In this document: positions 3,134 to 63,044 of the stretch, piece after piece
How positions within the stretch are numbered: position 1 is the first letter of the stretch
How the letters are laid out: every line of letters begins with the position of its first letter
From: a virus
Taxonomy: Duplodnaviria > Heunggongvirae > Uroviricota > Caudoviricetes
Strand: one strand, 5' to 3'
Length of the DNA stretch: 64,000 nucleotides
IMG/VR virus record: IMGVR_UViG_2571042445_000002
Made by a program: the position numbers and the translations under genes
The notes under the pieces: generated by a model
What the model was told of the DNA's origin: nothing
What the model saw: the letters and a program-made list of their open reading frames with translations, nothing else
Databases searched by the model: none

Positions 3134-3296
3134 CGATCATTTTATCCTCCATGATTATTAATGAATGTCATAATGATAGCGCACCGTTGCACCGTGCGCA
3201 AGTGCATATTGTAACAATTCCCCTCCTCCATCCAAAATCACAATCTCCCGAAAATCTTCCTTTCGATACCTGATAAATCGACCTTTGAGGACGCTT

Positions 3297-34500: not shown

Positions 34501-35049
34501 GAAATTATATCCAGCAGCCAAAATGCTATACGCCTAACTTATAATAATAACTATGGATTCCTAATAACTAATACTGGATATAGTTTCCAGATATCAACCA
34601 CTGGGCAAAATGTTAATGGTGATGTCGTTTACACTCCATTAAAGATAGATGGCGGTGATGGTCGCGTAGAATTAGGACGTGCTGATGGTCATGTAAGGGT
34701 TATGGGGAATTTATCTGCCGCTGGTCAGATTACCCCTGGTAACTATAGTAATTTCAACACGAAATATCAGGCTAAAAACACAGCATATGCCAACATTCAT
34801 GGATGGCATAAGGATACATCAACTAAGGTGATGATGCAGTGGGGGTTTATAACAAATTTAACTCCAGGAAGCGTGGTTAAATTTCCGACTACTTTTCCTG
34901 AGGCGTGTGCGGTAGTTGTGATTTCGCCTCACAGCGGGAATGCTGTCAATTCAATTCTTTATACATACAACCACTCAGTCACTGGTTTTACAGTGAAAAG
35001 TAGCTCCACTGATAAAATATATGCACAGTATGTTGCTTATGGTTATTAA
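31540..35049 (+). CDS. tail fiber protein with internal tandem repeats
   Basis: 1169 aa; conserved fiber motifs (PEFIGIPKSPTPEQGTNSTQIANTAFV, SPAFTGVPTAPTASQGTNNTQIATTAYV); repeated 40-aa units GNAATATKLQTARTIGGVSFDGSANIDLPGVNKTGNQSTT; SD GAGGG. Confidence 0.75.
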   Translation: MCADKVKNIVTLSSDISAPLIADMQYFELYSTEALNRKMKNIVLPGVYCGFEPVPGDGLFVRITSEKTEGRGAASIDVGKCQISVQQVSDVLVPVEAGVTTIIVLEANYEHGVKTSQVDSSSDISAARIIALVDEEIASNQIELCRVIVPDNAQAVTADMISTEYRANRAVGVEFSSALDSDEEYKAATPLAISTLNKLKAPVDSPEFIGIPKSPTPEQGTNSTQIANTAFVQAAITALIDGSPSALDTLKKIADAINNDPQFSQTINAALALKAPLLSPAFTGVPTAPTASQGTNNTQIATTAYVRAAISALVGSSPEALDTLNELAAALGNDPNFAATMTNALAGKQPLDATLTALADLATGANKLPYFTGTDTVAQTDLTSVGRDILAKTSTLAVIQYLGLRELGTSGEKLPLLSTANTWSARQTFSAGITGTLTGNADTATKLKTARKINGVAFDGSADITLTPEDLGLTDIASQAGNAVQRSGDTMGGQLKIGTINALRIFNQDFGLIFRRSEEYLHLIPTNEGEGENGDIGPLRPFSINLRTGLVSIGNGVKVGGGITGNLTGNADTATKLKIARTIGGVSFDGSANIDLPGVNKTGNQSTTGNAATATKLQTARTIGGVSFDGSANIDLPGVNKTGNQSTTGNAATATKLQTARTIGGVSFDGSANIDLPGVNKTGNQSTTGNAATATKLQTARTIGGVAFDGTANINLPGVNIAGNQNTTGNAATATKLQTARTINGVKFDGSANISIPTITSRGRVTALTSTTQGATTGLQMYEAYNNGYPSAYGNVLHLKGATAAGEGELFIGWSGTSGAHAPVHVRSRRDTDTASWSEWAQVYTSKDSIPGVNTTGNQNTTGNAASATKLQTARTIGGVSFNGTANIDLPGVNKTGNQSTTGNAATATKLQTARTIGGVSFDGTANINLPGVNIAGNQNTSGNAATATKLKTARKISGVAFDGSADITLTASHVGALPTTGGTVTGEIISSSQNAIRLTYNNNYGFLITNTGYSFQISTTGQNVNGDVVYTPLKIDGGDGRVELGRADGHVRVMGNLSAAGQITPGNYSNFNTKYQAKNTAYANIHGWHKDTSTKVMMQWGFITNLTPGSVVKFPTTFPEACAVVVISPHSGNAVNSILYTYNHSVTGFTVKSSSTDKIYAQYVAYGY
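33285..33660. repeat. three tandem 120-bp repeats inside the tail fiber gene (first two identical)
   Basis: 33301-33420 and 33421-33540 are identical; 33541-33660 differs at a few positions; diverged copies continue to ~33780 and recur at ~34150-34440. Confidence 0.8.
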
Positions 35050-35080
35050 AAATATAGTTAATTAGAATGAAGGTGCTTAA

Positions 35081-35503
35081 ATGGCAAAGTATTACAGCAA
35101 AGAGACTGGTGGTTTCTACGACGACAGACTAAAAGAAGATTACGATAAAAACGGTTCATGGCCGTCCGATACTGTACATATACCTGATGACTTATATGAT
35201 GAATTGTTATCAGGGTATGGCAATGGGAAAATAATAATTGCAAATGGCGATGGTTATCCAATGTTATCTGACCCACAACCTATGAGCTTAGAGGATAGAG
35301 TCAGCATTGCTGAAAACACCAAAAGTAGTCTTATGAATGATGTGAGCATAAAAATATCAACGCTTCAGGATGCTGTTGATATGGATATTGCCACTGATGA
35401 GGAAATAGAAATGTTGACAAAGTTAAAGAGGTATAGAGTTCTTCTTAATAGAGTTGACACTTCTGTTGATGCAGATATCTCATGGCCTGAGATGCCTGTA
35501 TAA
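35081..35503 (+). CDS. tail fiber assembly chaperone (Tfa-like)
   Basis: 140 aa; C-terminal EEIEMLTKLKRYRVLLNRVDTSVDADISWPEMP typical of Tfa proteins; directly downstream of fiber gene. Confidence 0.6.
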   Translation: MAKYYSKETGGFYDDRLKEDYDKNGSWPSDTVHIPDDLYDELLSGYGNGKIIIANGDGYPMLSDPQPMSLEDRVSIAENTKSSLMNDVSIKISTLQDAVDMDIATDEEIEMLTKLKRYRVLLNRVDTSVDADISWPEMPV

Positions 35504-35546
35504 ACAATCATAACAATCCAATCAGCACTGCTTTTTTGATATTTCA

Positions 35547-35575
35547 AGCCCTCTTTTGTTGAGGGCTTTATTAGT
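35547..35575 (+). terminator. rho-independent terminator after tail fiber assembly gene
   Basis: AGCCCTC-TTTTGTT-GAGGGCT followed by TTATTAGT. Confidence 0.55.
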
Positions 35576-35963
35576 GAGTGCTTTTGTGACCTTTTTTAGT
35601 AATACAATCCTTTGGTACAAAAAAGCCGCCGTCCAGTCAATGACGGCGGGCAAAATGAACACTCAGTTAGTGGTATCTGAGAGGGGGGCATTATATTCAC
35701 TGAATGACGCTTGTGAAGACTCACATGTCATCATTTTGTCCTCAAGAATCAGCTCACATCTTGCGCATTCAAGCGTATTTCTCTTTAAAGCCGTGTTTGG
35801 ACCATTTTGTTGATACGCGAATTTGGCATCCTCCACGCTCTGAGTGACGAGGTTTACGGACCACCGGGCCATCATATGCATCCATTTTGTGTGAATGGCA
35901 TTTAGTCGGGAAATAACAAACTGGATAAGTTGAAGCCGCGTTAAACGTCATTTCTGGAGGGGT

Positions 35964-36290
35964 ATGTTTGCAGATTATGAAAATCTGGCTGTAGCAGTCA
36001 TAACATCCCTGCTGAGTGGAACCGGCGTATTCCTTCTCGGAGTTAGAGACGGGCGCATTTCTGCGTCACTGCTCAACCTCGCGAGTGAATTGTTTACTGC
36101 GGTAACTGCCGGGCTTGCGGGGTTTTGGGTGGCTGATAGCTATGAATGGCCGGAAGGCATCATTTACTGCGTTGTTCTGATTGCCAGTAACAACGGAAGT
36201 GAAATTTTACAGGGCTTGAAGTCCAGAGCTAGTAACGTCTTGAATCTCTTAAGCGTAATAGCGAGTGGGGGAAAAGGTGGAGAGAAGTAA
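35964..36290 (+). CDS. holin-like small membrane protein (LydA-like candidate)
   Basis: 108 aa with ~3 hydrophobic segments and charged C-terminus; SD GGAGGGG; first gene of operon that includes the DarA-like gene. Confidence 0.4.
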   Translation: MFADYENLAVAVITSLLSGTGVFLLGVRDGRISASLLNLASELFTAVTAGLAGFWVADSYEWPEGIIYCVVLIASNNGSEILQGLKSRASNVLNLLSVIASGGKGGEK

Positions 36291-36736
36291 TGGGTGACTT
36301 TGGAAATTATTTCATTTTTATCATGGCATTTGTTGCCGTTATTGACCGTTTCTTATTTCGTCGCAAGAGTGTTGATATTTTGAGCATTGGCGAAGCTGTA
36401 GTGAAAGAGTCTGCTATAGCGTTTCCCGTGTCGCTTCGCGTTAAGCGAAGCTGGGTAAGCAATGCACAAATCGAATATTGGTTGCAGGACTTGAAAAATC
36501 CATCTGTGGTTATTTCGGGGAAAACAAGACCAGTTGACGCATCAAAACGCGGTGAGAGAGAAGAATATTTGCTCATCGACACGAAATATCTTGAGCCAGC
36601 GAAGTGGGATCTAAAGGTCACATTGACTAACGGTAATTGCCGCCTGAATCCGCTTTATCGCATTTTCCCTATCAATGACTGCATAGAACGCCAGTTTATG
36701 ATTGAAAAGTGTGAAGGAGACTGGAATGTCAAATAA
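36290..36736 (+). CDS. hypothetical membrane-anchored protein
   Basis: N-terminal hydrophobic segment FGNYFIFIMAFVAVI; overlaps flanking genes. Confidence 0.35.
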   Translation: MGDFGNYFIFIMAFVAVIDRFLFRRKSVDILSIGEAVVKESAIAFPVSLRVKRSWVSNAQIEYWLQDLKNPSVVISGKTRPVDASKRGEREEYLLIDTKYLEPAKWDLKVTLTNGNCRLNPLYRIFPINDCIERQFMIEKCEGDWNVK

Positions 36737-37343
36737 GTCTAATTATGTTCTTCTTAATTATGATGAGTTAAACGAAAAGGGGCTGGCAAAACTCGTCAAA
36801 GAAATCGGTAAAGGAGGCTACAAGATAGCGAGGGTGATCCCCGCCAGTAATGGCAGGAAGAAAGACGGGATCATGACGCGCACGTTTACCCTTATCGGAA
36901 TCGATGAGCAGACGATGGACGTTCAGGTTAATGATACTGGTGATATTTCTGGTGTAAAACTGAACGGAAAAATTGTTCCTTTCAAGCCAGTTAAAACGCT
37001 GATGGCTTTAGGGCAATCACTGGCTGCTTTATTTAATAAAGGCGCATCATCATTTCAGAAATCATTGGCGCGTAAGTTAGCTCGTGCGGCGAAAGATATT
37101 GATGATGGGAATAAGAAAATAAAAGGCGTTAAGTCCAATGCGCAGAAACTAGCAGAGGCAAAGGAATCTCGCGATGCGATCCGCGAGGATATTGAAAGGG
37201 CCAAAGAAAAATTAAATCAGGTGCAAGGTAATTCAGACCGCGCAACAAGAGAAACTGAAATCATTAGAACCGAGATGGCGCAGGAACTGGCGAAAACTCG
37301 CGTATTGAAAGAAGAAATAGCGCGCCTGGAGGAAGATGCATGA
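36726..37343 (+). CDS. hypothetical protein with C-terminal coiled-coil
   Basis: ATG 36726 with AAGGAG SD; 205 aa. Confidence 0.4.
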   Translation: MSNKSNYVLLNYDELNEKGLAKLVKEIGKGGYKIARVIPASNGRKKDGIMTRTFTLIGIDEQTMDVQVNDTGDISGVKLNGKIVPFKPVKTLMALGQSLAALFNKGASSFQKSLARKLARAAKDIDDGNKKIKGVKSNAQKLAEAKESRDAIREDIERAKEKLNQVQGNSDRATRETEIIRTEMAQELAKTRVLKEEIARLEEDA

Positions 37344-39292
37344 TAAAGAAACCTATTCGAATAAATATCCAGTCCACTTTTGCAGATACGCTCACTGGAT
37401 ATACGCCTAATCGTTGGGTGGCGGAGGATATCACCGAGGATGATTTACTTATCGAGCCTGCGACGCTGGAAGATATCGAGCTGGCCTATATGGGCAACGA
37501 AATTTTGGTAACTACCAATGAGGCAATGTTCGAAGCTATAACCACAACAAAATTGCGGTTAGCGCAAACAATGCGAGCATTTGTCCGGGCGCTTAATCGC
37601 GGCCTGAATGGCACTGACATTGCTGCGGGTACGGATGAGGCAGGTGAATATGAAGACGGACGTAATAGTATCGGTGGGGCAATCATTGGGCGCGTGCGCC
37701 GGGTTGCTAATATCCCTGTTGTAACAGCACAAATACCTCTAACCGATGGACAAACGACAAGCATAATTTTCCATTCTCCAACCGCAGACGGCACAAGAAT
37801 TAAAGGGGATGACGAGCTGGTTGCGTTTCAGTTTCTTCTTAACAAAAGAAACGTTACGCATGTTGTTGCGCCAATCGGTGGGCGTGATGTATCTCTGAGC
37901 CAGGTGTGTCAGGCGCTTTCTAACCTCATTGAGCGTAACAGTGCAAAATTCAAAAAAGCAAAGGAGCGCCAGGACAAAATGAAGGCTGATATTGAGGGGT
38001 ATCTCAATGAAGCCGACAAGCTGGCAGAAGAACGTTCTGTGCTGATTGAGCAGGTTGAAGACGCACAGCGGGGGCTGGCAGAGAAACGCTCAACACTCAA
38101 TGATATGCAGAATAAATTAGACGCACAAAAAGCCCTTAACGCGGAATTGCAGGCTAAGCGCGATAATTTATTGTCAGCTAAGAGCCAAGGAACTAAAGAG
38201 CGAGCCTTCAATGATCAACTGCGACACATAAAACATAATCTTGCTACAGAAGGCCAAACAACGCTGGATAATGGTGCTGTAGTTAAGTATGTCACGTCAG
38301 GCAGTGATAGCTTTGTCACGATTGAGGCACCAGAAGGCAATTTCAGTATTGATGTCAGTGCTGTTAAAGGTGGGAGTTCAGCGGACGCTGCAACCAAATT
38401 ACTTAAAGCCTATCGTGAACATAATGCTGATCAATACAAAGTGGATGTGTTGCCGGGCCAGCCTGAGCCAACTGATCAGCCGCAGCCTGAACAGGAGCCA
38501 CAACCAGCATCACATCCTGATCCCCTGGAGGTTGGTAAATATCGCTATGCGCTCCAATCTCGCCCGGCGGGTGTTGGTGCGGTTCCTGAAGGAAATAAAG
38601 CTGTACTTGACCGTCCTGATCAGGCTGATCCGTATTACGAATATGCTCGTCACGGAATCATTACGTATGACCGCAAACTGACAGATGAAGAAGTCAGTCA
38701 GTACGAGTTGCTATATCTCCCTGGTGACGATGAATTGAAAGAGATTGCAGGCGAATTGGTTGCGTCCAGTATGTCGAACCATATTGATGGCTACGTTGAT
38801 CTGTTTGGAAGCGACTTGAAAACCTTTAAGGCGCAGATAAAAATCCTCTTCCGCAAAGCATTTCCTAACGTCGCTTATCCACTTGGAGATGGGGAGAACC
38901 TTTTTATAATGGATATCTATAACGCGCTTCAGAATCAATCAGAAGTAGTCGAAGCTGAACAGACATTAGATCAGGCGCCGGAAGCAGTACAAGAACCAGA
39001 ACCTGAGTCTGAACCTGAATCCCCCCAAGAGTCTGATACAGGTTCAGATGGGCCAGTAGTTAGTGAGGCTGATCAGGAGGCGGACAGTGCGCTGGAATAT
39101 CTGAAATCCGTGCCGTTGCAGTTTACGTCCCGTGATTTGACGGTGATTAGAGCGGAGTTTGATCGCATTCAGGAGGCAGCTAATGTTCTTATCAACGCAG
39201 GTCGATATGATGAGAACGAGTCACTTGTTGGTGCGGCAGCCGATCACCTGATCAACATTCTGGCAGAGATACAACAAGGGGGCGTGTGGTGA
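37340..39292 (+). CDS. large hypothetical protein, possible DarA-like virion internal protein
   Basis: 650 aa; size and operon context (after holin-like genes, as in the P1 lydA-lydB-darA arrangement recalled); central coiled-coil, acidic Pro-rich linkers. Confidence 0.4.
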   Translation: MIKKPIRINIQSTFADTLTGYTPNRWVAEDITEDDLLIEPATLEDIELAYMGNEILVTTNEAMFEAITTTKLRLAQTMRAFVRALNRGLNGTDIAAGTDEAGEYEDGRNSIGGAIIGRVRRVANIPVVTAQIPLTDGQTTSIIFHSPTADGTRIKGDDELVAFQFLLNKRNVTHVVAPIGGRDVSLSQVCQALSNLIERNSAKFKKAKERQDKMKADIEGYLNEADKLAEERSVLIEQVEDAQRGLAEKRSTLNDMQNKLDAQKALNAELQAKRDNLLSAKSQGTKERAFNDQLRHIKHNLATEGQTTLDNGAVVKYVTSGSDSFVTIEAPEGNFSIDVSAVKGGSSADAATKLLKAYREHNADQYKVDVLPGQPEPTDQPQPEQEPQPASHPDPLEVGKYRYALQSRPAGVGAVPEGNKAVLDRPDQADPYYEYARHGIITYDRKLTDEEVSQYELLYLPGDDELKEIAGELVASSMSNHIDGYVDLFGSDLKTFKAQIKILFRKAFPNVAYPLGDGENLFIMDIYNALQNQSEVVEAEQTLDQAPEAVQEPEPESEPESPQESDTGSDGPVVSEADQEADSALEYLKSVPLQFTSRDLTVIRAEFDRIQEAANVLINAGRYDENESLVGAAADHLINILAEIQQGGVW

Positions 39293-39657
39293 AAATATCA
39301 GTAACGGAGCGCCTTAGCTTAGGCAAAGAACTGTCTGAGCTGATGTCTGCGCAAAAAAGCGCGACTGCGGTACAACGTGTCACTATTGGCGTGCGGATAG
39401 TTGAAGTGATGATGAAGCTGGGGCTTGGTTCATCGAATAATCCAGCACAACAGCAAGAAGAGGAAGTGCAACCGGCGGCACAAGAAACGCCTAAAATTGT
39501 TGCTGACTTCCTTAGTGGTGCATTTACTAAATCATCACAAATGGAGTTCATCGATGCTTTGAGAGGCATATCTCAATATGTTGGTGAATTTTTGACACTC
39601 GACCAGGCCAAAGAACAGACCGTAAACTGGGTTTCAGCTAACGGGTATGCAGCGTAA
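39286..39657 (+). CDS. hypothetical protein
   Basis: 123-aa ORF overlapping previous stop. Confidence 0.4.
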   Translation: MVKISVTERLSLGKELSELMSAQKSATAVQRVTIGVRIVEVMMKLGLGSSNNPAQQQEEEVQPAAQETPKIVADFLSGAFTKSSQMEFIDALRGISQYVGEFLTLDQAKEQTVNWVSANGYAA

Positions 39658-39748
39658 AAGAGAGGGGCAGAATGCCCCTTTCTTCTTAAAATAGTCACCG
39701 AAATAACACACTTTTTACACTGCCTTTTTTACAGAAAGGTGGTTAATT

Positions 39749-41134
39749 GTGACTCAAAACGTAACATCAGCACTTCTGGCCGCAGCGAACATTGAGGGGG
39801 TTATCGCTGTGGTGTCATCTCTTGAAAAGCAAGAGACGAAGTTGGGGCGTAGCAGCTATGTCGTCACCAGCAAAGGCGACGAAGTTAAAACAGCGTTCAA
39901 GGTTATTGATGCCAAAAAGCTCATCATTTCTAACAACCTGGACGGAAGTATAAATCCGTCATTTCCGGAGGAACTCCAGCCTCGCGATCGCACCCGACTG
40001 TCAAGTAAGCTCCAGGTTAACCGTATCGCCGCCAATTTACGCCCGGCACAACTCACTGATTCGGGTATGAGTAGTCATGGTTCCCCGATTGTTGGTCCGG
40101 ATAATGTCGTTGAGTCTGGTAATGGTCGAAGCATGGGAATCTGGCGTGCTTATGAACAAGGGCAGGCTGAAGATTACCGACAATATCTTATCGATCACGC
40201 TAAAGAGTTTGGCCTTAATCCCGAAGACGTCAGGGCAATGGTGATGCCTGTACTGGTTCGCGAGCGCCTCACTGACGTTGATCGTGCTCAATTTGCACGC
40301 GACTCAAACATCAGCGATCTGCAAGAGATGGCTGCAAGTGAGAAAGCGTATGCGGATGCGCAATTTCTCACTGAGAGCGTCATGGCGCTATTTAATCCTT
40401 CAGATGATGGAAATCTACTGGCGCGGTCCAATGATGCGTTTATTCGTGCGTTTTTGCACGAAATAGGTGATACCGCGACGGCAGGTTTGCTTACAGCCGA
40501 TGGACGTCCAACGAAACAGCTTATCGATCGCATTCAGAATGCGATTTTTGCCAAAGCCTATAAGGATGAGCGACTTGTTCGGCTTGTGGCGGAAGAACCG
40601 GATCCGGAAATGCGCAATATCCTGACCGCGCTTAATACAGCGGCCAGTGACTTTGCGCAAATGCAGTCGATTTCTGGCGATGCACATCATGATGCTGTAA
40701 CTGGTCTGGTTGATGGTATAGAGCAGGTGAACGGTCTGGATAAACAGGCTATAGCAGCACTCCAGGACGCGATTAACCTTGTTCGTGAAGCCAAAGACAA
40801 CGGTCAGGCAGTGGAAGAGGTGATAGCCCAGCGCGGACTCTTCGGTGATAGCACGCCGGAAGCTGAGGCGTTGGCGCTATTCATCGTGGCAAATAATCGA
40901 AGCGCGAAGCGCATGGGGGCTGCATTCAAAAAAATGGCACAAAAAATCAACGACGAACTGATTCATAAACAGCAGGCGTTGGGCGATATGTTCGGCGGTG
41001 GAGATGTCGATCTACGTAGTATTTTGACCGCTGTTTCTAATGAGATTGAACTGGAACATGGAGAGGGGAAAGGGCTTAACTTCACGATGTTCGAAGCCAA
41101 AACAGAACAAAGCGATTTTGGGCTGGAAACCTGA
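39749..41134 (+). CDS. hypothetical protein with ParB/Srx-like N-terminal region
   Basis: Segment IDAKKLIISNN...LQPRDR...SPIVGPDNVVESGNGRSMG resembles ParB N-terminal box pattern; GTG start with AAGGTGG SD. Confidence 0.4.
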   Translation: MTQNVTSALLAAANIEGVIAVVSSLEKQETKLGRSSYVVTSKGDEVKTAFKVIDAKKLIISNNLDGSINPSFPEELQPRDRTRLSSKLQVNRIAANLRPAQLTDSGMSSHGSPIVGPDNVVESGNGRSMGIWRAYEQGQAEDYRQYLIDHAKEFGLNPEDVRAMVMPVLVRERLTDVDRAQFARDSNISDLQEMAASEKAYADAQFLTESVMALFNPSDDGNLLARSNDAFIRAFLHEIGDTATAGLLTADGRPTKQLIDRIQNAIFAKAYKDERLVRLVAEEPDPEMRNILTALNTAASDFAQMQSISGDAHHDAVTGLVDGIEQVNGLDKQAIAALQDAINLVREAKDNGQAVEEVIAQRGLFGDSTPEAEALALFIVANNRSAKRMGAAFKKMAQKINDELIHKQQALGDMFGGGDVDLRSILTAVSNEIELEHGEGKGLNFTMFEAKTEQSDFGLET

Positions 41135-41149
41135 CCTGGCGACCGGACA

Positions 41150-41185
41150 CCCCGGATAACCTCCGGGGGATTCGGTATTTCTTCT
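41150..41185 (+). terminator. hairpin CCCCGG-ATAACCT-CCGGGG with U-rich tail
   Basis: Located 16 nt after the stop at 41134. Confidence 0.45.
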
Positions 41186-41245
41186 TTGAATAGAGCGTTT
41201 TTAACAAATACCCCGTAAATCCTCGCCCAGCAGGGCGGGGAGCAG

Positions 41246-41677
41246 TCACCGCATTGGTGTGACAGATACGACGATATTTTTATTCAGTTGATGCAGTGCC
41301 AGCTCGACAGTTTCAACTTTCGATGAATGTTCGACGTCGAGAAGCCGATCAATCTGAGTTCCATTTTTTCCGAGTTTGCGCGCCAACTCTGCTTTGCGTG
41401 TGCCGGTTTCTATCATCGCGTTGTGGAGTGCAGCCTTCATTGCTGGTAGCACTGGCAAAGAGACAACGTACTCACCTTCTTTTGGCTCGCTACCAGTGGG
41501 AACAGGTCGGCGTTCTTCAATCTCAATCGCAACCGCTGCGACCAATCCATAACCAGCCTCAAGCAACGCTTCTTCAACTGAGTCACCCACGGAATTAAAC
41601 AATGGTAGGTCGCGGCATGATACGACATACGCGCCGGTTTTGTCGTCGCGCTCCAGTTTTACCGGATAGTTAAACAT
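41246..41677 (-). CDS. hicB: HicB-family antitoxin
   Basis: MFNYPVKLERDDKTGAYVVSCRDLP N-terminal fold segment and C-terminal HTH (RKAELARKLGKNGTQIDRLL) parallel E. coli HicB as recalled. Confidence 0.7.
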   Translation of the reverse strand: MFNYPVKLERDDKTGAYVVSCRDLPLFNSVGDSVEEALLEAGYGLVAAVAIEIEERRPVPTGSEPKEGEYVVSLPVLPAMKAALHNAMIETGTRKAELARKLGKNGTQIDRLLDVEHSSKVETVELALHQLNKNIVVSVTPMR

Positions 41678-41707
41678 AGAGAAGCTCCTAGTGAAAAAGG
41701 CTGGGGC

Positions 41708-41890
41708 TTAAAGCCCCAGGTCCTTCATTATTTTCTTGCGTAGCGGTTCAGGCATTTCCTTTGAACCGTGGTCCGGGAAAACCGACCGCTTTCCGTTCAG
41801 GTTCACTTTCTGATGACTGCCGCCACCAGGCGCTTTCCTGAACTCTGCCCCTTGCTGGATTAACCAGCGTTTGAACTCTGAATACTTCAC
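41708..41890 (-). CDS. hicA: HicA-family toxin
   Basis: 60 aa; KYSEFKRWLIQQGA...GGSHQKVNLNGKRSVFPDHGSKEMPEPLRKKIMKDLGL parallels HicA; GTG start with AAGGAAA SD. Confidence 0.7.
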   Translation of the reverse strand: MKYSEFKRWLIQQGAEFRKAPGGGSHQKVNLNGKRSVFPDHGSKEMPEPLRKKIMKDLGL

Positions 41891-41962
41891 AAGTTTCCTT
41901 ATGCAATTTATCCATCATGGGCGATAAGAATAGTAACACAAAAGATATAAAACACAACAAAA

Positions 41963-41976
41963 ATGTTTATAAACAT
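41963..41976. promoter_or_regulatory. perfect 14-bp palindrome ATGTTTATAAACAT upstream of the 42123 operon
   Basis: Self-complementary; followed by direct repeats GCATATGG(A/T)GAAAAACA at 42019 and 42037. Confidence 0.35.
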
Positions 41977-42122
41977 AACTTCCTTGTTTGGTGGTTGCGT
42001 TTTTGGAAAAGCATTTCCGCATATGGAAAAACATCAGCATATGGTGAAAACAACGAAAAATTACTGATGAAATCACACACTGGATAAGCTGCCACGAAAT
42101 CGGAAACCTTTTGCGGTGAATC

Positions 42123-48736: not shown

Positions 48737-48848
48737 TCCCCTTTTGAGTAAGAACCTTCGGGGTGTGATTCTGCGAAATTAACACACTCCATACCCTCTC
48801 AAACCGTACCGCTTAAGGCGGATTTAACGGTTTTGAGGGGGGCTTCCT

Positions 48849-51800
48849 TTGGACAAAATAATTGATTCAATTAGCCAGGCCACCAGCATTGGGGCGCTGA
48901 TTGAAATTGTTAGTCGGTTGCATAAACCGCGAGCTGTAGTGACCTTTGGCGTTAAGAAAGTCGATGGCGTCAGTATTCAGAAAACACGCCGGGCAGCAAA
49001 CAACGCCGCAGTAAATCTTCTTAATTCCCTTCCGCCTGGCTTCGATGGGGCGAAATTAACTGACGAACAGCGCCAGATTCTTGCCGGGTATACCGGTGAA
49101 GGCGGCCTGACAGATGGTGAGGGCAGCCAATACGAATACTATACGCCACAGTTTATGGCAGAAGGTATATGGGATCTCTTCGGCGACTACGGTATTGATA
49201 GCGGTCACGTACTGGAACCGTCAGCAGGCACAGGTATTTTCCAGGAGACAAAACGGCAGGGCATGATAATGACCAGTGCCGAACTGTCTCCGATCTCCGG
49301 TCGAATAAACCAGCTTTTGCACCCGGAAGATGATGTGAATATCGGGGCGTTTGAGGCGCTGGCGGCGAAAGATGCAATGTATGACCACGCAGTTGGTAAC
49401 GTACCGTTTGGCGAAGGGCGTTCCGGCGTCGCCGGGCTTGATCCGGCATATGCAAACGAGAAGAACGTTGGCAATTATTTTGTGCTGCGCACGATCGACA
49501 AGGTTAAGCCTGGTGGACTAATTGTATTGGTGGTGCCGAATGGCATGACCGATGGTACGAAATACAAAAAATTGCGCGATAAAGTCAGCCGTAAAGCGGA
49601 ATTTTTGGGCGCGCATCGTATGCCTTCTGGTACGTTCAGCGAATCCGGTACAGATACCGTGGTGGACGTATGGGTATTGCGTAAACACCCGGAAACCTTC
49701 CTGGAGATGATCCCCGACACGGATGATGCAACGCTCAAATCGGCAAACGTCCTTTGGGATACCTTCCTCAAAGGGAAATGGTTTACAACCGAAGGGAAGC
49801 GATTTGTTTACGGCGACATGGAACGCACCAGCTTCCGCAATACCCTGGTGGTGAAAAAGGACGGTCGTGTATCCAATGAGTCGATGAAAACCGCGTTATC
49901 ATGCCGCTTTGAAAGCCGTATTAATTGGGATTTGCTCGGAGTAACTACCCAGGCATGGCAGGGCGCAAAAGTAGGGGATAAGCGTCTTGTAGGCGGTATC
50001 TGGCATGAGTTTGATGGCCTGAAATGGGTTAAGGACACGACAACCAAATCCTCCGCGCTTGATGTAAGTCGATATGGTGTTTCGACGTTTGGCGATCTGC
50101 AGATCGCGTTCCAGTCAACAAACGGGATTCTGGCTTTGTCATGGGACCAGATATCGGCGATCGCGTCCGACTATCCATCGGTTGTCAGTGATGAAGTGGC
50201 AGCAATGATTCGCTTTGCTGGCAAACAGCGAGAAAAAGACAGGGAGCGCGTTATGCGCGGTGCGTTGATAGGGCAGTTGATCAACAAGGCACTTGATTTG
50301 CGTAACCTGGGGGTGAACGTTGATGACAAACTGGCAGATGCATCCCGCCTGGCGGCAGCAGAAGTTGCGAAGTATGGACCACCGCACGCGATTAAGCTGA
50401 ATGGGCTTGCTGAAGCTGGCGCTAAAAACTGGATGACGTTCACTGGCAATGTGAAACAGGATGGTTCCACTTCTGACCTTCTGGCAGGGCGACTTGATGT
50501 AACGGATGGTGCTGCCGGTATTGACTTTACACGTCCGGAACAAGTGATAGCACATCTTTTCAGTGATGTAGCCCTTAATCCTATAACGCTGGGCGACTTT
50601 CGTGAGGCGTTTGCTGGTGAACTGCCAGAGGACGACGACGCGGCCCTTGAATACCTGGCGAAATTTGATGATATCGCTATTGATGGGTATGGCTGCCTGC
50701 TGCCGATGGACCGCGCCACCAGCGGCGATATTGTAACCAAAACAGCATTGCTGGTGGGCTGGCGTGATGCATCAACAGGTGAGCAGAAAGCGAACTTTGA
50801 GCGTCAGTTGGCGAAAATCGAAGAGAAACGCATTTTCACGCCACTAAATAAAGTCACCGTTAATCTGAACGCCCGCTGGCTGGATCGCCGCTTGATAAAA
50901 GAGTTCCTGGCAGAGCAGGGCTATGACGAGTTTAAGTACACTGAACCTGATCTGAAGGTCGTCGATGGCATTCTGGTATCTCCGGACGATTACGAAGGTA
51001 AGGACGGGGTATTTACCGGCTATCAGCTACGAACCGTAAACGGCAAAAACGGGAATGAGTTCAAGAAGGCCAACAATAAAGACGGCTTCCTGAACCAGTT
51101 AGAAAACTACCTGAACGGTGTTAAACCGCGTGGGCAGAACGCTAACGAGTACCTGGATAAAATTGCTCAACTGGAAGTTAGCTTTAACGACTGGTTACGC
51201 ACCCACCCGCAGGCGGATCAGATAGCCCGTGACTATAACGACGCATTCAATGGCTTCATTCCGTTCACGCACTCTAACGCACCGCTTGGCCTGGAAGGGA
51301 TTAGTGGAAAGCGCATTCCTCTGACTTATCAGAATGAAGAAGTTCGTCGCTTGTCAGAAGATGGGCGCGGCATCATGGGATTTGGTACCGGGCTGGGTAA
51401 AACCACGACCGCGCTTGCGCTTGAGGCGTATAACTTCGAAACAGGTCGTACTAAACGCACGTGTATTGTTGTTCCGAAGGCGGTTTATCAGAACTGGTAT
51501 CACGAGGCACAGAGCTTCTACAGTGCTGATGCCTTCGCCAATATGATGTTTATCGGTCTGGATGAAGTTCGTGATGACAGCGGAAATATTCTGACCGCTC
51601 CGGTGCTTGATGAAAATGGCGAACCCCGCCTCGACAGTAACGGGCAGCCTCTTACCAGAAATGTTGTGAAAGAGTCCGCCAGCGCCGTTATCGTTCAGCG
51701 CATGAACATGATCCCGTCGTCAAATTGGCGAACGGTCATCATGACAAAAGAACAATTCGCGTCTATCCCGCTACGAGAAAAAACCATCGAGGAGAACTCA

Positions 51801-54800
51801 CAGCAAGCTGTCTTTAATGCTGTGGAAATGGGGCGTCTTGACCTGGCGTCTGGTAAACACCGTGATGCGCAGAAGAAGAACAAGATTAAGGATCAGGCCG
51901 CGAATACCGGTACAACGAAGAAGCAGAATATCCCGTACTTTGAGGATATGAACTTCGATAGCGTGATAGCCGACGAGGGGCATAACTACCGCAACTCCTT
52001 TAATGCCGGGCGTGAAGCGGGACAACTGGCATATTTGCCTAACCCGGCAGTATCCAAGATGGCCCGCGACATGGCTGTAAAAGCTGCGTACATGATGAAA
52101 CGCAACAACGGGCGTGGTGTAGTCATGCTGACGGCAACACCGCTGGTGAACAGTCCGATTGATGCCTTCAACATGCTGTCTACTGTCATTCCGCAGGAAG
52201 AGTGGATGCGCATGGGCATCATTACGCCTGATGATTTCGTTCGTGTGTTTGGTAAAACAGCCACAGTTCAGGTCCAGAAAATTTCCGGGGAAGTGGAAGA
52301 GAAGCAGGGGCTGGTTGGCTTCCAGAACCTTGATGGCCTGCGTGGTATTTTCCATCGCTGGACTACTCTGAAGACTGCTGCGGACGTCGGGGCGACGGTT
52401 AAAATCCCTGATATTGTCGAGAATACCTTGCAGATCCCGATGACAGGGGAGCAGGAGGCTGCTTATGAAGAGCTTCGTAAGCGTGCACAGGAGTTAAGTA
52501 GTAAAGATGCGCTGACGGTTGATGAAAACGGGCATATCACAAACGAAAAACCGGATGATTTCATCTTCTCCATCATCCGCGACATGGATAAGGTTGCTAT
52601 AGATCCGGATCTGTATGCCAGTGCGATTACATTCCAGTTCCCCGTTGAGCTTGCAGACAAGGTAAAAGCTATTGCTGATGCCCTGCCAAAAGTAGCTGGC
52701 GGTAAAGTGGCAGATGATGCAGACGAGGCCGAAGAAGACGGCGCTGGTGGGCTGGTTAGTACGCGCACCAGTAAGGTAGTGAAGACCACCTTTAGTGAAC
52801 ATCCGGCGCATGTTGAAATACGTGCCAGCATTGAACTGGAAGCTGAAATACTGAAGGCCATTGCTGCCGCCGGGATTGATATGCAGCAGGTATCACACCC
52901 AATCCCGCCGAAGTATGCCGCGCTGATCGAAAACCTTCGTGAAGGTCTGAAGAACGGTAAACAAATTGTCTTCATTGATGAAAAAGCCCAGCACCAGAAG
53001 CTGCGCCGTATTATCGCCAGTGCACTGCAAATGCCGGAGCAGGAGATAGGCATTATCAATGCGACGACCGTTAGCCAGGCTGGCGGCATCAAGCTGAAGA
53101 AGGTGAATAAGCCGACTGAACCTACTCCGAATAAAAATGGTGAATACAAAGAAGGGGCATGGGAAACCTACTACAGCAAACTTGCCCAATATGAGGATTA
53201 TCTCTCAGCTAAAAATGATGCTGGCCTTGAGGGTATGGAAGGCATTGCCGCCGACTATAACGAAGGGCGCACGCGCATAATTATCTGTAACAAGAAGGCT
53301 GAAGTAGGTATTAACCTGCATATCGGGACAACCGATATCCACCACCTGACACTACCCTGGACACCAGCCAGTATCGACCAACGAAATGGGCGCGGTGCGC
53401 GCGTAGGTTCACCGCAAGAGAAGGTCAATGTTCACTACTATTGTGGCAAAGGCACATTCGACGACTTCCGTCTGGATACGCTGAAACGTAAGAAAGACTG
53501 GATCAAGATGGTGATGACCTCCGACATGTCAGAGATCGCCAATGGTGATGCGGATGATGCTGATGAACGCGCCATTATGCTGGCGGCAAACCCGGAAGAA
53601 CGCCGCGCAATCATGGCTCGCCAGGCGCAAGAGCGTGAAGAACGTCTGAAACTGAAAGCACAGCGCGAGGCCAACAATGCTCTCGATATCTACCTGAAAG
53701 CGGCAAACGCCGCTGGAAAAGATATCGGCATGATGGAGACAGAACTGAAAAGCGCGATGGAACAGATAGAGTATTACCAGCGAAATCTTGACGACCTGAT
53801 AAAAGCGGGTACGAACAGGAATGGGCAAAAATTCGCGCTTGAGCAGTTGAGTAGCTACAGAAAACGTGCGCGGGTGCTGCGGTTTGCGATCACCAGGGCA
53901 AAAGACGCGGATACCATAATGAAACGCTCTCGTGGTGATGTGGAGCGCGCTATTAAGTCTGGTGTGCTGGATATCAGTATCGATGTTATTCAGAACCCAC
54001 AGGAATATATGCGCACTGACAAGAATATCCTGTTGCATAAAGGTAGTTATTACCGTGCAGTCATTGATGATCGCGAAACAACAGCGATTGTCCGGGTGGA
54101 AAAAATTGACGGTGAAAAAGCACAATACCTCTGCCGTATCGCCTGGCTGGATAGAGCAAGTCGTTACGCTCGAGCACCGGGGTCAATCGTTACATTGCCG
54201 TTTGACTCTGTGATTGAAGCGGTAACTTTTGAAGAGGGGGTAGCTGAATCGCGCGCAACGGCTGCGCGTGGTGTTCAGTGCCACCAGCTATCAACAATAC
54301 TTACTCGCGATCAGTTCTATGATGCTATTCGCAATGGGGTAATGAATGTTATTGCTGGTAAACCTGGTAATGCATGGGGCGGTGGGTCAGCTATTAAATA
54401 CTGGGCATATCGCACAGATGATGGTCAGATCGCGCTGTCATCGGCCTATGATGGCGTGATAGGCCAAAAAATCGGGCGAGCATCGGATATAGCACCTGAA
54501 CGATGGATATATCCAGATGGCAACGATGAGGCGCTGAAGCGTGAAGTGGCAAAAATACAAGCCAGTGATAACCCGCTGAATATCGTGGACGGCGAGGGAT
54601 TCCTCCAGGCATTGTATGGGTATGATTACATCCAGGGAATGCAGGCATGGGGCGCACAGGCAACGATGGATGATGTTGTCCAGGAGTTCGAAAACTGGAT
54701 GGCTGGGCGTGGTCTGTCAGGTCGTTCGCTTAATAAAGTCACTTCTGAAGATATTCTTAGCTTGTTCCGCAAACCGTCCGGAGAAGGTCTGGAATCATTC

Positions 54801-55685
54801 TGGAGGACCGTGCTGGCATACCGTTTATTCAAGGGCAGAATGAAAGCCTTTAGCAATATCGATGATATTGAACGGATGTTTAATCAGGTCAAGATCGCCA
54901 AAATTAAGACGAAGATCGAAAAAACACGTTCTGCGCTGGTGGCCTGGCGCGATGCATTGTTTGAGCAATATAAATCACTCAGTGATGCAGATGGATGGGC
55001 GGCATTGGAACAGTTGGCGAATAATGGGGTAGATGGAGCGAAACTCGCCATAGTCCAGGCTGATAACCCCCTGGAATCACCGGCAGCACAGTGGATTAAG
55101 GTGGGGGCTGTCATCAATGCATTTGATGAAAAACACATTAGTAAGGACGATTTTGCTGATGCTGTTTCTGTTAATCGCCTGGTAGAAATGGCTACCCGCC
55201 GCGCCCGTGAGTTGAAAGACGGTGACTATGTGAATGAGTTGCCGGATGCGCTCAAATCAGCAACGTGGCAAGACTATGTATCGCTGAAAAACGGCGGGGC
55301 CACCGAATCAGAGATCGCGGAAAGGCTTGAACAGGCTGAAAGCAAAAGAGAAGAGCAGGCGGCAGTGGCTGAAGCCAGAGCTGATGAAGCGGCGAATGAT
55401 GACTATATCATTGTGGTTAATGATAAGCCGATTCGCGCTAAGGCGCGTGTTCGCGGGCGCTGGTGGAGTGTCAGCGAGGACGTCGGTGCGGTTTATCTCA
55501 TTGCCGACCAACCAGGTTCCTCGACAATACGGAACGCCAAAGACGCGATTAAGAAGATTGGCGGGCGTTTCTGGAATTTTGAAGCAAACCCGGTTGCTGA
55601 TGTGAACTTTGACCGTCCTGCATGGATGGTATCTACGCGTTACTCGGTAGATGAACTGCGTAAAATAATCGCCGATGCGGCCTAA
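48849..55685 (+). CDS. darB: DarB-like giant N6-adenine methyltransferase / SF2 helicase fusion (anti-restriction candidate)
   Basis: 2278 aa; MTase motif I VLEPSAGTGIF and motif IV-like GNVPFG near N-terminus; helicase motifs GFGTGLGKTT (Walker A), VIADEGHNYRN (DExH), LTATPLVNS, RNGRGARVG; size matches P1 DarB as recalled; TTG start. Confidence 0.7.
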   Translation: MDKIIDSISQATSIGALIEIVSRLHKPRAVVTFGVKKVDGVSIQKTRRAANNAAVNLLNSLPPGFDGAKLTDEQRQILAGYTGEGGLTDGEGSQYEYYTPQFMAEGIWDLFGDYGIDSGHVLEPSAGTGIFQETKRQGMIMTSAELSPISGRINQLLHPEDDVNIGAFEALAAKDAMYDHAVGNVPFGEGRSGVAGLDPAYANEKNVGNYFVLRTIDKVKPGGLIVLVVPNGMTDGTKYKKLRDKVSRKAEFLGAHRMPSGTFSESGTDTVVDVWVLRKHPETFLEMIPDTDDATLKSANVLWDTFLKGKWFTTEGKRFVYGDMERTSFRNTLVVKKDGRVSNESMKTALSCRFESRINWDLLGVTTQAWQGAKVGDKRLVGGIWHEFDGLKWVKDTTTKSSALDVSRYGVSTFGDLQIAFQSTNGILALSWDQISAIASDYPSVVSDEVAAMIRFAGKQREKDRERVMRGALIGQLINKALDLRNLGVNVDDKLADASRLAAAEVAKYGPPHAIKLNGLAEAGAKNWMTFTGNVKQDGSTSDLLAGRLDVTDGAAGIDFTRPEQVIAHLFSDVALNPITLGDFREAFAGELPEDDDAALEYLAKFDDIAIDGYGCLLPMDRATSGDIVTKTALLVGWRDASTGEQKANFERQLAKIEEKRIFTPLNKVTVNLNARWLDRRLIKEFLAEQGYDEFKYTEPDLKVVDGILVSPDDYEGKDGVFTGYQLRTVNGKNGNEFKKANNKDGFLNQLENYLNGVKPRGQNANEYLDKIAQLEVSFNDWLRTHPQADQIARDYNDAFNGFIPFTHSNAPLGLEGISGKRIPLTYQNEEVRRLSEDGRGIMGFGTGLGKTTTALALEAYNFETGRTKRTCIVVPKAVYQNWYHEAQSFYSADAFANMMFIGLDEVRDDSGNILTAPVLDENGEPRLDSNGQPLTRNVVKESASAVIVQRMNMIPSSNWRTVIMTKEQFASIPLREKTIEENSQQAVFNAVEMGRLDLASGKHRDAQKKNKIKDQAANTGTTKKQNIPYFEDMNFDSVIADEGHNYRNSFNAGREAGQLAYLPNPAVSKMARDMAVKAAYMMKRNNGRGVVMLTATPLVNSPIDAFNMLSTVIPQEEWMRMGIITPDDFVRVFGKTATVQVQKISGEVEEKQGLVGFQNLDGLRGIFHRWTTLKTAADVGATVKIPDIVENTLQIPMTGEQEAAYEELRKRAQELSSKDALTVDENGHITNEKPDDFIFSIIRDMDKVAIDPDLYASAITFQFPVELADKVKAIADALPKVAGGKVADDADEAEEDGAGGLVSTRTSKVVKTTFSEHPAHVEIRASIELEAEILKAIAAAGIDMQQVSHPIPPKYAALIENLREGLKNGKQIVFIDEKAQHQKLRRIIASALQMPEQEIGIINATTVSQAGGIKLKKVNKPTEPTPNKNGEYKEGAWETYYSKLAQYEDYLSAKNDAGLEGMEGIAADYNEGRTRIIICNKKAEVGINLHIGTTDIHHLTLPWTPASIDQRNGRGARVGSPQEKVNVHYYCGKGTFDDFRLDTLKRKKDWIKMVMTSDMSEIANGDADDADERAIMLAANPEERRAIMARQAQEREERLKLKAQREANNALDIYLKAANAAGKDIGMMETELKSAMEQIEYYQRNLDDLIKAGTNRNGQKFALEQLSSYRKRARVLRFAITRAKDADTIMKRSRGDVERAIKSGVLDISIDVIQNPQEYMRTDKNILLHKGSYYRAVIDDRETTAIVRVEKIDGEKAQYLCRIAWLDRASRYARAPGSIVTLPFDSVIEAVTFEEGVAESRATAARGVQCHQLSTILTRDQFYDAIRNGVMNVIAGKPGNAWGGGSAIKYWAYRTDDGQIALSSAYDGVIGQKIGRASDIAPERWIYPDGNDEALKREVAKIQASDNPLNIVDGEGFLQALYGYDYIQGMQAWGAQATMDDVVQEFENWMAGRGLSGRSLNKVTSEDILSLFRKPSGEGLESFWRTVLAYRLFKGRMKAFSNIDDIERMFNQVKIAKIKTKIEKTRSALVAWRDALFEQYKSLSDADGWAALEQLANNGVDGAKLAIVQADNPLESPAAQWIKVGAVINAFDEKHISKDDFADAVSVNRLVEMATRRARELKDGDYVNELPDALKSATWQDYVSLKNGGATESEIAERLEQAESKREEQAAVAEARADEAANDDYIIVVNDKPIRAKARVRGRWWSVSEDVGAVYLIADQPGSSTIRNAKDAIKKIGGRFWNFEANPVADVNFDRPAWMVSTRYSVDELRKIIADAA

Positions 55686-55721
55686 CAGATAAGGAGCGGC
55701 CCCAACCGGGGCCGAATTTGA

Positions 55722-56156
55722 ATGACGACATTAATTGACACTGTAAAACCGACGGAATCCTACCTTGAGGACATTTTGCCGCAGGCGCTCAATGGCAGGA
55801 GTGAAGAGGCGTTTCTGGATGCATATCTGGATGGCATGGCGGAAAGGCTGAAAAGAGATCCACAGCTTTATCATCTTTATGGGCCGTGGTGGCCTGCGCT
55901 TAAAACGTTATTGCTGGAGCGTGGCGACATATCATTTGGACAAGTTGTAGATAGTGATGTGGCAGAAATCTACAAAATGAGTCGCCCGGCGCTTACGGTT
56001 TTAGCCGGGCATCTGTATTCGAGCGATCGCCTGGAAAATGACGCGGTATACAATCCCGTTCATGCTCTGGAAGTCGCGCCTTATGCTGATGATACAGAGC
56101 CATACGTATACACAAGTTACGACGAGTCTATAGAGAAATATCGAATCGTGGGGTAG
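55722..56156 (+). CDS. hypothetical protein
   Basis: 144-aa ORF after GC hairpin 55697-55714. Confidence 0.4.
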   Translation: MTTLIDTVKPTESYLEDILPQALNGRSEEAFLDAYLDGMAERLKRDPQLYHLYGPWWPALKTLLLERGDISFGQVVDSDVAEIYKMSRPALTVLAGHLYSSDRLENDAVYNPVHALEVAPYADDTEPYVYTSYDESIEKYRIVG

Positions 56157-62651: not shown

Positions 62652-63044
62652 ATGGAGCAAATCAGTAGCGCCGAAATAGCGGATATCATGATCAGGGCTA
62701 ACTGCTATCTGACGGTCACCGAAATCACCAGCCGTGCAAAAGCACAATATCCTCACCTTCATGTGTCGCGCGTAAACGTAAATAACATCATACGTTTTTT
62801 TGTTCGTTCCAGTCGTGCCATTTGCGAAATAGACGACCGCGTATACCCCCGGAAATATTGGTTACATGGCCTGAATGGATACCAGTTCAAGGTGCGCGGG
62901 CGCACTCCTGAATTCGGTCGGCTGTTGGTGAAAAACACCAACCGAAAGATAGAAGCTCAATTACGAAAGGAGCAGCGTCAGTTGGTGGCGATGACTAACC
63001 AGCTATGGAACGCCGCTGTGAAAAAACGTGAGGCTTCCCTATGA
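62652..63044 (+). CDS. hypothetical protein, possible late-promoter activator (Lpa-like position upstream of pacA)
   Basis: 130 aa; directly upstream of and overlapping the PacA-like gene, as lpa is in P1 (recalled); functional call by synteny only. Confidence 0.35.
   Translation: MEQISSAEIADIMIRANCYLTVTEITSRAKAQYPHLHVSRVNVNNIIRFFVRSSRAICEIDDRVYPRKYWLHGLNGYQFKVRGRTPEFGRLLVKNTNRKIEAQLRKEQRQLVAMTNQLWNAAVKKREASL

Follow-up and report, generated by a model that had tools for sequence, protein, structure and literature searches.

Gene content and order of the locus

The window, a 64,000-nt stretch, is part of a D6-like phage-plasmid and carries six + strand open reading frames between 35964 and 41134, where our ORF listing and the first-pass annotation agree in placing them. 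The first five genes overlap their neighbours by 1-11 nt and thus form a tightly coupled block, and a 91-nt spacer separates the fifth gene, ddrA, from the sixth, ddrB.

The block opens with lydA (35964..36290, + strand), which encodes a 108-aa holin that is 41% identical to P1 LydA (E=1.5e-23) and 94% identical to LydA of phage D6, and that matches phrog_1527 (1.3e-38). Its Pfam holin score of 20.5 bits is under the cutoff of 28.4, and hydrophobic segments are visible by eye in the translation. The following gene, lydB (36290..36736, + strand), completes the pair of a LydA-family holin and LydB: it encodes a 148-aa holin antagonist with a Pfam LydB match above cutoff (1.5e-24), 34% identity to P1 LydB (E=5e-29) and a match to phrog_1898 (4e-68).

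The next gene, hdf (36726..37343, + strand), encodes a 205-aa small paralogue of DarA with a Pfam DarA_N domain (7e-18), 40% identity to P1 Hdf (E=1e-29) and a match to phrog_1620, ‘Hdf-like antirestriction’ (3e-72). The mechanical ORF spans 36702-37343 (213 aa from a TTG at 36702), however ATG 36726 is the likelier start, because a GGAG lies upstream at 36715-36718 and the equivalent start is found in D6 and in RefSeq. The 650-aa internal head protein encoded by darA (37340..39292, + strand) is 40.5% identical to P1 DarA over 632 aa (E=1.6e-144), aligns with P1 residues 39-637 by BLASTP and contains both Pfam domains, DarA_N (8e-40) and DarA_C (4e-19). Furthermore, it scores 1088 bits against the NCBIfam equivalog NF052326, for which the cutoff is 350, and matches the solved P1 DarA chain 9ukm_I at 1e-124.

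For ddrA, the mechanical ORF runs from 39286 to 39657 (123 aa), and the likelier start is GTG 39289, which overlaps the darA stop as GTGA and gives a 122-aa protein (39289..39657, + strand). DdrA is 37% identical to P1 DdrA (E=5e-25), 66% identical to D6 DdrA and matches phrog_1855, ‘DdrA-like anti-restriction protein’ (2e-45); no match was found among Pfam or NCBIfam models. The sixth gene, ddrB (39749..41134, + strand), encodes 461 aa and is described below.

PHROGs families assigned in the window are holin, lysis determining protein, Hdf-like, DarA family, DdrA-like and Ulx-like. NCBIfam holds a model for DarA only, and the other five proteins have no curated name there. A search of 35000-42300 against Rfam gave no match near the gathering score; IS009, at 35.6 bits against a cutoff of 117 and inside the tail-fibre assembly gene, was dismissed.

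We compared the six genes with the two annotated relatives. All six proteins, the Dar and Ddr homologues included, match their positional P1 counterparts by BLASTP (34-64% identity, E 1e-23 to 0), and they are 66-94% identical to their D6 counterparts. The order lydA-lydB-hdf-darA-ddrA-ddrB on one strand matches the P1 and D6 records in an ORF map comparison. In D6 (NC_050154) these genes are orf30-orf25, annotated with the same six names in identical order, with 80% nucleotide identity to the window and protein identities of 94, 94, 80, 78, 66 and 90% from lydA to ddrB. The P1 operon, LPdar-lydA-lydB-hdf-darA-ddrA-ddrB-hxr plus darB-ulx, belongs to the system that has been studied by experiment and that supplies the mechanism (PMC12810830, PMC9024508, PMC12707154). 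All six genes are alike in order and domain content in P1 and the window: DarA_N is common to Hdf and DarA, DdrB opens with the ddrB-ParB domain, and DarB, Ulx, Prt and Pro are present. The differences are that five of the proteins are only 34-41% identical to those of P1 and that the window lacks hxr, lydC and the antisense iddB ORF. The frame corresponding to iddB is broken in the window, leaving an 81-aa ORF, and its 64% ‘similarity’ is a mirror of the conserved ddrB coding sequence.

The first-pass annotation had recognised a P1-like lydA-lydB-hdf-darA-ddrA order from protein sizes and synteny, and BLASTP against P1, Pfam, PHROGs and the NCBIfam DarA equivalog all agree with it. These comparisons indicate that 35964-41134 is very probably the lysis-plus-Dar late operon of a D6-like, P1-related E. 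coli plasmid prophage. The operon has already been described and is not a new system.

A short form of DdrB

By its sequence, the ParB-like protein of 461 aa is a short DdrB, 64% identical to P1 DdrB residues 2-442 by BLASTP. It consists of a ParB/Srx-like domain at about residues 42-173 followed by a helical region. The ParB-box-like N-terminal segment reported for this gene by the first-pass annotation is real and corresponds to the Pfam family ddrB-ParB (PF18763, residues 42-173, E=2.5e-40), which is named after DdrB and of which P1 DdrB is the founding member (PMC5512222). The suggestion that a ParB-like last gene was unexpected and might be an extra component was mistaken, since ddrB directly follows ddrA in P1.

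The protein belongs to the DdrB-like clade of the ParB/Srx superfamily according to the profile match, the ParB/Srx fold and the conserved active-site arginine. It is not a partition ParB: Pfam detects neither an HTH_ParB nor a KorB domain, the gene is flanked by ddrA and hicB with no adjacent parA, and for its own partition the plasmid has a ParM-type gene pair elsewhere on the element. Compared with sulfiredoxin and the N-terminal domains of ParB, KorB and PadC, DdrB has no HTH/centromere-binding domain and sits among late virion genes. Solved ParB structures gave no sequence-level match to DdrB.

While the protein is a member of the ddrB gene family, it does not have the full-length P1 architecture, in which a ParB-like N-terminus is joined to a predicted zincin metallopeptidase and the protein is processed before packaging. 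DdrB has 995 aa in P1, and the C-terminal ~550 residues, including the predicted metallopeptidase, are absent here; tblastn with P1 DdrB residues 443-995 gave no match, either in the window or anywhere on the complete 92.8-kb plasmid. The short form is common to D6 (454 aa) and many relatives. It keeps the conserved ParB/Srx-fold core. Without the half carried by P1 DdrB, the protein may be processed differently and might also differ in role.

Putative late promoters and hairpins

Upstream of lydA lies a motif of P1-like architecture but of different sequence, with an upstream box, a 3-nt spacer and a TANNNT -10 element (AAATAACAAACT-gga-TAAGTT, 35911..35931, + strand). It ends 33 nt before the lydA ATG, has zero mismatches and occupies the position of P1 LPdar. 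A second zero-mismatch copy (AAATAACACACT-ttt-TACACT, 39701..39721, + strand) is found 28 nt before the ddrB GTG, and further copies stand before prt (42070-42090, + strand) and before darB (48777-48797, + strand). In D6 the same motif is found at the same positions, before lydA and before ddrB. From the motif itself, we infer that the copies before lydA and ddrB are putative Lpa-type late promoters. A diverged Lpa homologue (34% identity) is encoded at 62652-63044.

Across the window, the late-promoter-like motif occurs nine times against 0.51 expected, in every case on the + strand.

The P1 late-promoter pattern, AAGTNACTT-N4-TANNNT, gave 18 matches against 14.9 expected, with 0 upstream of lydA; being neither enriched nor upstream of lydA, the P1 box appears not to be used here. 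The box of the window reads AAAT[A/C]ACA[A/C]ACT, whereas that of P1 reads AAGTGACTT. The motif is lineage-specific, and D6-like phages appear to use a box other than that of P1.

The gap between ddrA and ddrB is 12 nt in P1, while the 91-nt gap of the window contains a hairpin in addition to the promoter-like motif. The hairpin (AAGAGAGGGGCA-GAA-TGCCCCTTTCTT, 39658..39684) directly follows the ddrA stop and is terminator-like on both strands; the terminator scan lists it on the - strand. The predicted fold of the 101-nt spacer has a free energy of -28.9 kcal/mol (z=-3.4). D6 has the same hairpin in this position, and in Pantoea this spacer holds a strong terminator. After ddrB, a second terminator-like hairpin, CCCCGGA-taacc-TCCGGGG with a T-rich tract (41150..41187, + strand), faces the convergent hicB and overlaps a terminator scan site at 41163-41175.

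The hairpin and the promoter-like motif set ddrB apart from ddrA, and one may ask whether the 461-aa gene is an independent unit with no role in DarB loading, its product being either an injected DNase or NTPase directed against the DNA of the host or of a competitor, or a factor that binds the DNA of the incoming genome. DdrB is 64% identical to its P1 counterpart, far above the 34-41% of its neighbours, its core carries varied C-terminal additions across phages (none, InPase or the P1 tail), and Iyer et al. predicted DNase or NTPase activity for its ParB clade (PMC5512222). However, DdrB of P1 belongs to the head proteins and is listed as a helper in adding DarB to the capsid (PMC9024508), its packaging depends on Hdf and DarA (PMC12810830), and the position of ddrB right after ddrA holds from E. 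coli to Vibrio. We therefore regard an independent unit as improbable. In a related and equally speculative proposal, the conserved working unit of DdrB would be the ~440-residue ParB/Srx-fold core alone, expressed as its own late unit. Such a core could be injected and could bind or cut DNA in a nucleotide-dependent manner, resembling the KorB/ParB CTP-dependent clamps, to which it is closest in fold. Its target could be the phage DNA, onto which it would load during entry, or host DNA, which it would attack. If true, this would offer a concrete biochemical mechanism for the long-unexplained cis-acting protection by Dar.

The Dar system and the element that carries it

The P1-type Dar components Hdf, DarA, DdrA, DdrB, DarB and Ulx are all found in the window (E 5e-25 to 0 by BLASTP or tblastn against P1). 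The last two are encoded in a second Dar unit (48777..56156) that is opened by the motif copy at 48777-48797. The 2278-aa darB product (48849-55685, + strand) combines a methyltransferase with an SNF2 helicase (Pfam SNF2, Helicase_C and N6_Mtase) and is 43% identical to P1 DarB over 2000 aa (E=0), and the 144-aa ulx product (55722-56156, + strand) is 46% identical to P1 Ulx (E=9e-39) and matches phrog_1629, ‘Ulx-like’ (9e-58). Between the operon and this unit lie prt, encoding the portal (42123-43808, + strand; 51% to P1 Prt, E=2e-166, tblastn), and pro, encoding the prohead protease (43822-44820, + strand; 41% to P1 Pro, E=8e-77, tblastn). In P1, the processing of DarA is attributed to Pro (PMC12810830), and the Pro homologue in the window is a candidate for the same step.

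The P1 system suggests how these genes would act. LydA, the holin, and its antagonist LydB would set the timing of lysis, and Hdf and DarA would be paralogous head-internal proteins. In P1, 55 Hdf-DarA pairs are located on the inner capsid surface at penton-hexon junctions, where they touch the packaged DNA; the two proteins contribute to head-size control, and without them DdrA, DdrB, DarB and Ulx are not loaded into the head (functional roles drawn jointly from PMC12810830, PMC9024508, PMC12707154 and PMC5512222). P1 Dar proteins are packaged in the head, ejected with the DNA and protect in cis from type I restriction-modification (PMC12810830, PMC9024508, PMC12707154). By analogy, the Dar proteins encoded here would exit the capsid together with the DNA on infection and would shield their own DNA, in cis only, against the type I systems EcoA, EcoB and EcoK and the BREX-type StySA. 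Thus, the proposal of the first-pass annotation that this is an antirestriction or internal-protein operon holds at the level of homology, while virion packaging, co-injection and an antirestriction effect would carry over from P1 across ~40% identity. Phage T4 uses the same principle, keeping internal protein I in the head and injecting it along with the DNA so that restriction is overcome (PMC12810830, PMC5512222). The T4 protein is unrelated in sequence, and it binds and inhibits the restriction enzyme, whereas Dar is described as cis-acting on the packaged DNA (PMC5512222, PMC12707154).

The morphogenetic role of Hdf and DarA in P1 means that antirestriction may not be their main function. 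Deleting darA or hdf in P1 lowers the proportion of normal-sized heads from ~80% to ~15%, and cryo-EM places DarA-Hdf on the capsid shell adjoining the scaffold cleavage sites (PMC12810830); PGAP names the protein ‘head protein’. Accordingly, hdf-darA might be mainly a capsid-assembly module, acting as auxiliary scaffold and head-size determinant, with antirestriction secondary or achieved via DarB and Ulx alone. Such a role is, however, compatible with the Dar reading, as Hdf and DarA are also needed in P1 for protection from EcoA and StySA (PMC12810830, PMC9024508), and the retention of the full six-protein set here suggests that the whole Dar system is under selection. A mainly capsid-assembly module is therefore a rather unlikely account, albeit one that deserves some weight.

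As a discovery the locus carries little weight, being annotated gene for gene in D6 and forming part of a system for which P1 has provided both genetic and structural work. PGAP, the current NCBI pipeline, already names darA in near-identical plasmids, while older RefSeq records of the plasmid lineage call five of the six genes ‘hypothetical’, and to these the present assignments can be transferred. Comparison beyond P1 alone adds that a large natural lineage can dispense with the peptidase half of DdrB and that the D6-like late-promoter box appears to differ from that of P1, both of which are useful for engineering or inducing these common phage-plasmids.

Of 5426 complete E. coli genomes, 100 carry the operon on plasmids. 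Between U and lydA, D6 has the cin invertase together with the alternative tail-fibre genes S' and U'; in the window, only a ~90-bp fragment is left of the cin next to the operon, and the invertible tail-fibre segment has been lost. This loss would fit a decaying remnant in a defective plasmid prophage, neither expressed nor functional. Against such decay, the six ORFs are full length relative to D6, and a near-identical 92.8-kb plasmid, carried for example by strain MINF_7C (NZ_LR890273.1), retains portal, protease, tail, baseplate, pacase and replication genes. Furthermore, the operon is at least 99% identical in 14 independent complete E. coli genomes and always plasmid-borne, and we consider a remnant highly improbable. 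Elements of ~90 kb in Pantoea and Vibrio share this gene order. Downstream of ddrB, D6 carries a DUF4145 gene and orf23, whereas the window carries a hicAB toxin-antitoxin pair.

Identity of the lysis and Dar operon

The region 35964-41134 was proposed in the first-pass annotation to be a P1-like lydA-lydB-hdf-darA-ddrA arrangement ending in a ParB-like gene, and this reading as a P1-type lysis and Dar (defence against restriction) operon is borne out by BLASTP against P1 and the P1-related Escherichia phage D6 (NC_050154), by Pfam and PHROGs, by the DarA equivalog and by the structure chain 9ukm_I. The ORF listing of the window returned six ORFs at exactly the proposed coordinates, all on the + strand: the holin gene lydA (35964-36290, 108 aa), the holin antagonist gene lydB (36290-36736, 148 aa), hdf (36702-37343, 213 aa from a TTG start), darA (37340-39292, 650 aa), ddrA (39286-39657, 123 aa) and ddrB (39749-41134, 461 aa). 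The most likely start of hdf is the ATG at 36726 (205 aa), which is preceded by GGAG at 36715-36718 and is also used by D6 and RefSeq, and that of ddrA is most likely the GTG at 39289, where start codon and darA stop codon share a GTGA. Successive genes from lydA to ddrA, the first five, overlap by 1-11 nt, and a 91-nt spacer separates ddrA from ddrB.

We compared the six proteins by BLASTP with the annotated P1 and D6 proteins extracted from their records. Identity to P1 and D6, respectively, is 41% (E=1.5e-23) and 94% for LydA, 34% (E=5e-29) and 94% for LydB, 40% (E=1e-29) and 80% for Hdf, 40.5% (over 632 aa, E=1.6e-144) and 78% for DarA, 37% (E=5e-25) and 66% for DdrA, and 64% (over 448 aa, E=0) and 90% for DdrB. 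The profile searches that the first-pass annotation had suggested as a check were run on the same proteins: PHROGs names all six, and Pfam matches LydB, DarA_N (in both Hdf and DarA), DarA_C and ddrB-ParB. Furthermore, DarA scores 1088 bits against a cutoff of 350 for the NCBI curated equivalog 'antirestriction phage head protein DarA' and matches the solved P1 DarA chain 9ukm_I at 1e-124. These independent profile libraries agree with the BLASTP assignments. The remaining Dar system genes are also found in the window, namely darB (48849-55685, 43% identical to P1 DarB), ulx (55722-56156, 46%), the portal gene prt (42123-43808, 51%) and the prohead protease gene pro (43822-44820, 41%). Judged by its sequence, the operon belongs to the P1-type Dar system and represents the D6 variant: homologues of all components, the gene order, the DarA architecture and Pro are present, the long P1-specific DdrB architecture is lacking, and the late promoter has a putative counterpart with a different box.

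At the DNA level, the operon region shares 80% identity with D6, and 99.6-99.8% with three E. coli plasmids (90-93 kb). We found the operon in 100 of 5426 complete E. coli genomes, plasmid-borne every time, with at least 99% identity in 14 of those 100. On the near-identical plasmid NZ_LR890273.1 (92,830 bp) there are genes for portal, protease, tail, baseplate, pacase and lytic replication as well as for RepB and ParM, which makes it a complete P1/D6-type plasmid prophage. The D6 GenBank record labels its six genes 'similar to P1 gene lydA / lydB / hdf / darA / ddrA / ddrB', and darA is now named by PGAP in the near-identical plasmids. Since the D6 annotation and current RefSeq naming already cover the operon, it is already known.

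Mechanism by analogy with P1

In P1, 55 pairs of Hdf and DarA sit on the inner capsid surface at penton-hexon junctions, in contact with DNA; without Hdf/DarA, heads shift to the small size and DdrA, DdrB, DarB and Ulx are excluded from the particle; the DarA N-terminus is removed, probably by Pro; and the proteins exit with the DNA upon infection (PMC12810830). DarA and Hdf are reported to determine head size and to bring the Dar system into the particle, DdrA to antagonise EcoA, and Ulx and DdrB to help DarB localise and join the capsid (PMC9024508). Each Dar gene is dispensable for plaque formation when the host does not restrict (PMC10695390). All sequence prerequisites of this mechanism were found in the window, and by analogy we infer that it operates here as in P1: Hdf-DarA pairs would line the inner capsid, contact DNA, set head size and load DdrA, DdrB, DarB and Ulx, Pro would probably trim the DarA N-terminus, and the Dar proteins would leave with the DNA at infection.

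The ParB-like gene ddrB

The suggestion that the ParB-like gene falls outside the P1 comparison did not hold, as P1 ddrB comes directly after ddrA; the gene is ddrB and not an addition to the operon. Its product matches the Pfam family PF18763, which Iyer et al. 2017 (PMC5512222) built from P1 DdrB. The real difference from P1 ddrB is length, the window protein aligning to residues 2-442 of P1 DdrB (995 aa) and then ending. The rest of P1 DdrB, within which lies a predicted zincin-type metallopeptidase (Iyer et al., PMC5512222; note of the P1 record), is without a match in either the window or the complete plasmid. D6 DdrB is likewise a short form (454 aa). In a database survey, forms of 440-480 aa were common on 85-95-kb contigs of Enterobacterales, Vibrio and Photobacterium, and in other relatives different domains are attached, InPase in Vibrio being one example; the module of about 440 residues is therefore a conserved core with variable C-terminal additions. 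This core is 64% identical to P1, compared with 34-41% for the five upstream proteins, and either is under much stronger constraint or has been exchanged as a module between lineages.

A candidate for iddB, the annotated P1 antisense gene inside ddrB, was rejected: the apparent 64% match at 40288-40719 (- strand) has an interrupted frame with only an 81-aa ORF left, which speaks against conservation of iddB as a gene.

Putative late promoters, spacer and flanking regions

We found no equivalent upstream of the window lydA of LPdar, the annotated P1 late promoter of the darA operon (AAGTTACTT-N4-TACCAT). Window and D6 have GAAATAACA(A/C)ACT in common, both upstream of lydA and in the ddrA-ddrB spacer. 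A pattern search with AAAT[A/C]ACA[A/C]ACT-N3-TANNNT (at most 2 mismatches) returned 9 copies in the window against 0.51 expected, a number reached in 0 of 100 shuffles. All 9 are on the + strand and precede late or virion gene blocks, the best just upstream of gene starts; they lie at 3235, 11934, 14689 and 23519 (the latter two upstream of two virion-gene blocks), 31031 (tail-fibre block), 35911 (lydA), 39701 (ddrB), 42070 (prt) and 48777 (darB). The complete plasmid has only 7 copies at no more than 1 mismatch, all likewise placed, and in the D6 locus (L001) copies precede lydA, ddrB and prt (4003, 7787 and 10293). With an upstream box, a short spacer and TANNNT, the motif has the architecture of P1 late promoters but a different box. 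Just upstream of the pacase gene, a 130-aa ORF (62652-63044, +) shares 34% identity with Lpa, the late activator of P1, a divergence that would fit the changed promoter box. Given the P1-like architecture and the diverged Lpa homologue, we take the motif as this lineage's putative late promoter, and probably as the Lpa-type one of D6-like phages.

Within the ddrA-ddrB spacer, a stable predicted hairpin (39658-39684, z = -3.4) comes before the motif, and Pantoea has a textbook terminator at the equivalent position. With this hairpin and motif, ddrB appears to be transcribed as a unit separate from ddrA, in contrast to P1, where the gap is 12 nt. In a second predicted hairpin (39719-39743, + strand RNA), the ddrB Shine-Dalgarno region (GAAAGGTGG) pairs with a stretch overlapping the putative -10 hexamer, so that the ddrB ribosome site could be masked in read-through RNA from ddrA but not in RNA started at the ddrB promoter; such masking is speculative. 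The equivalent D6 hairpin is weaker (6 bp).

Between U and lydA (35504-35963), the invertible tail-fibre segment and cin invertase of P1 and D6 are missing, which leaves the lineage with one fixed tail-fibre type. A cin remnant of ~90 bp (35731-35822, - strand) covers Cin residues 11-34 at 71% amino acid identity, and its nucleotides are about 80-84% identical to those of recombinase genes on related plasmids; the remainder of the gap is matched in only four plasmid records. On the - strand (35717-35616), the gap also has an 11/12 sigma-70 consensus match (TTCACA-16-TATAAT, ending at 35690) and, ~40 nt downstream, a strong terminator hairpin (35649-35626) followed by a T run; the predicted ~65-nt transcript could be a small RNA or deletion debris. 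The translated 1169-aa tail-fibre protein (31540-35049, +) has many tandem ~40-aa units (…TGNQSTTGNAATATKLQTARTIGGVSFDGSANIDLPGVNK…).

The space separating ddrB from the portal gene holds a hicB-hicA toxin-antitoxin pair (41246-41890, - strand) that faces ddrB convergently. This is a variable cargo slot, which D6 fills with DUF4145 and orf23, P1 with hxr/isaB/IS1, other plasmids with DUF3944 and an HTH gene, and the Pantoea relative with a restriction gene of DpnII/MboI type. Upstream of ddrB on a Vibrio contig (JAWOSI010000015.1; L008 6725-7010), we found four palindromic TTTTCGCATGCGA(G/A)AAC copies, which may be a regulatory site of the Vibrio lineage's own, and DarA is enlarged to 1510-1597 aa in these Vibrio elements.
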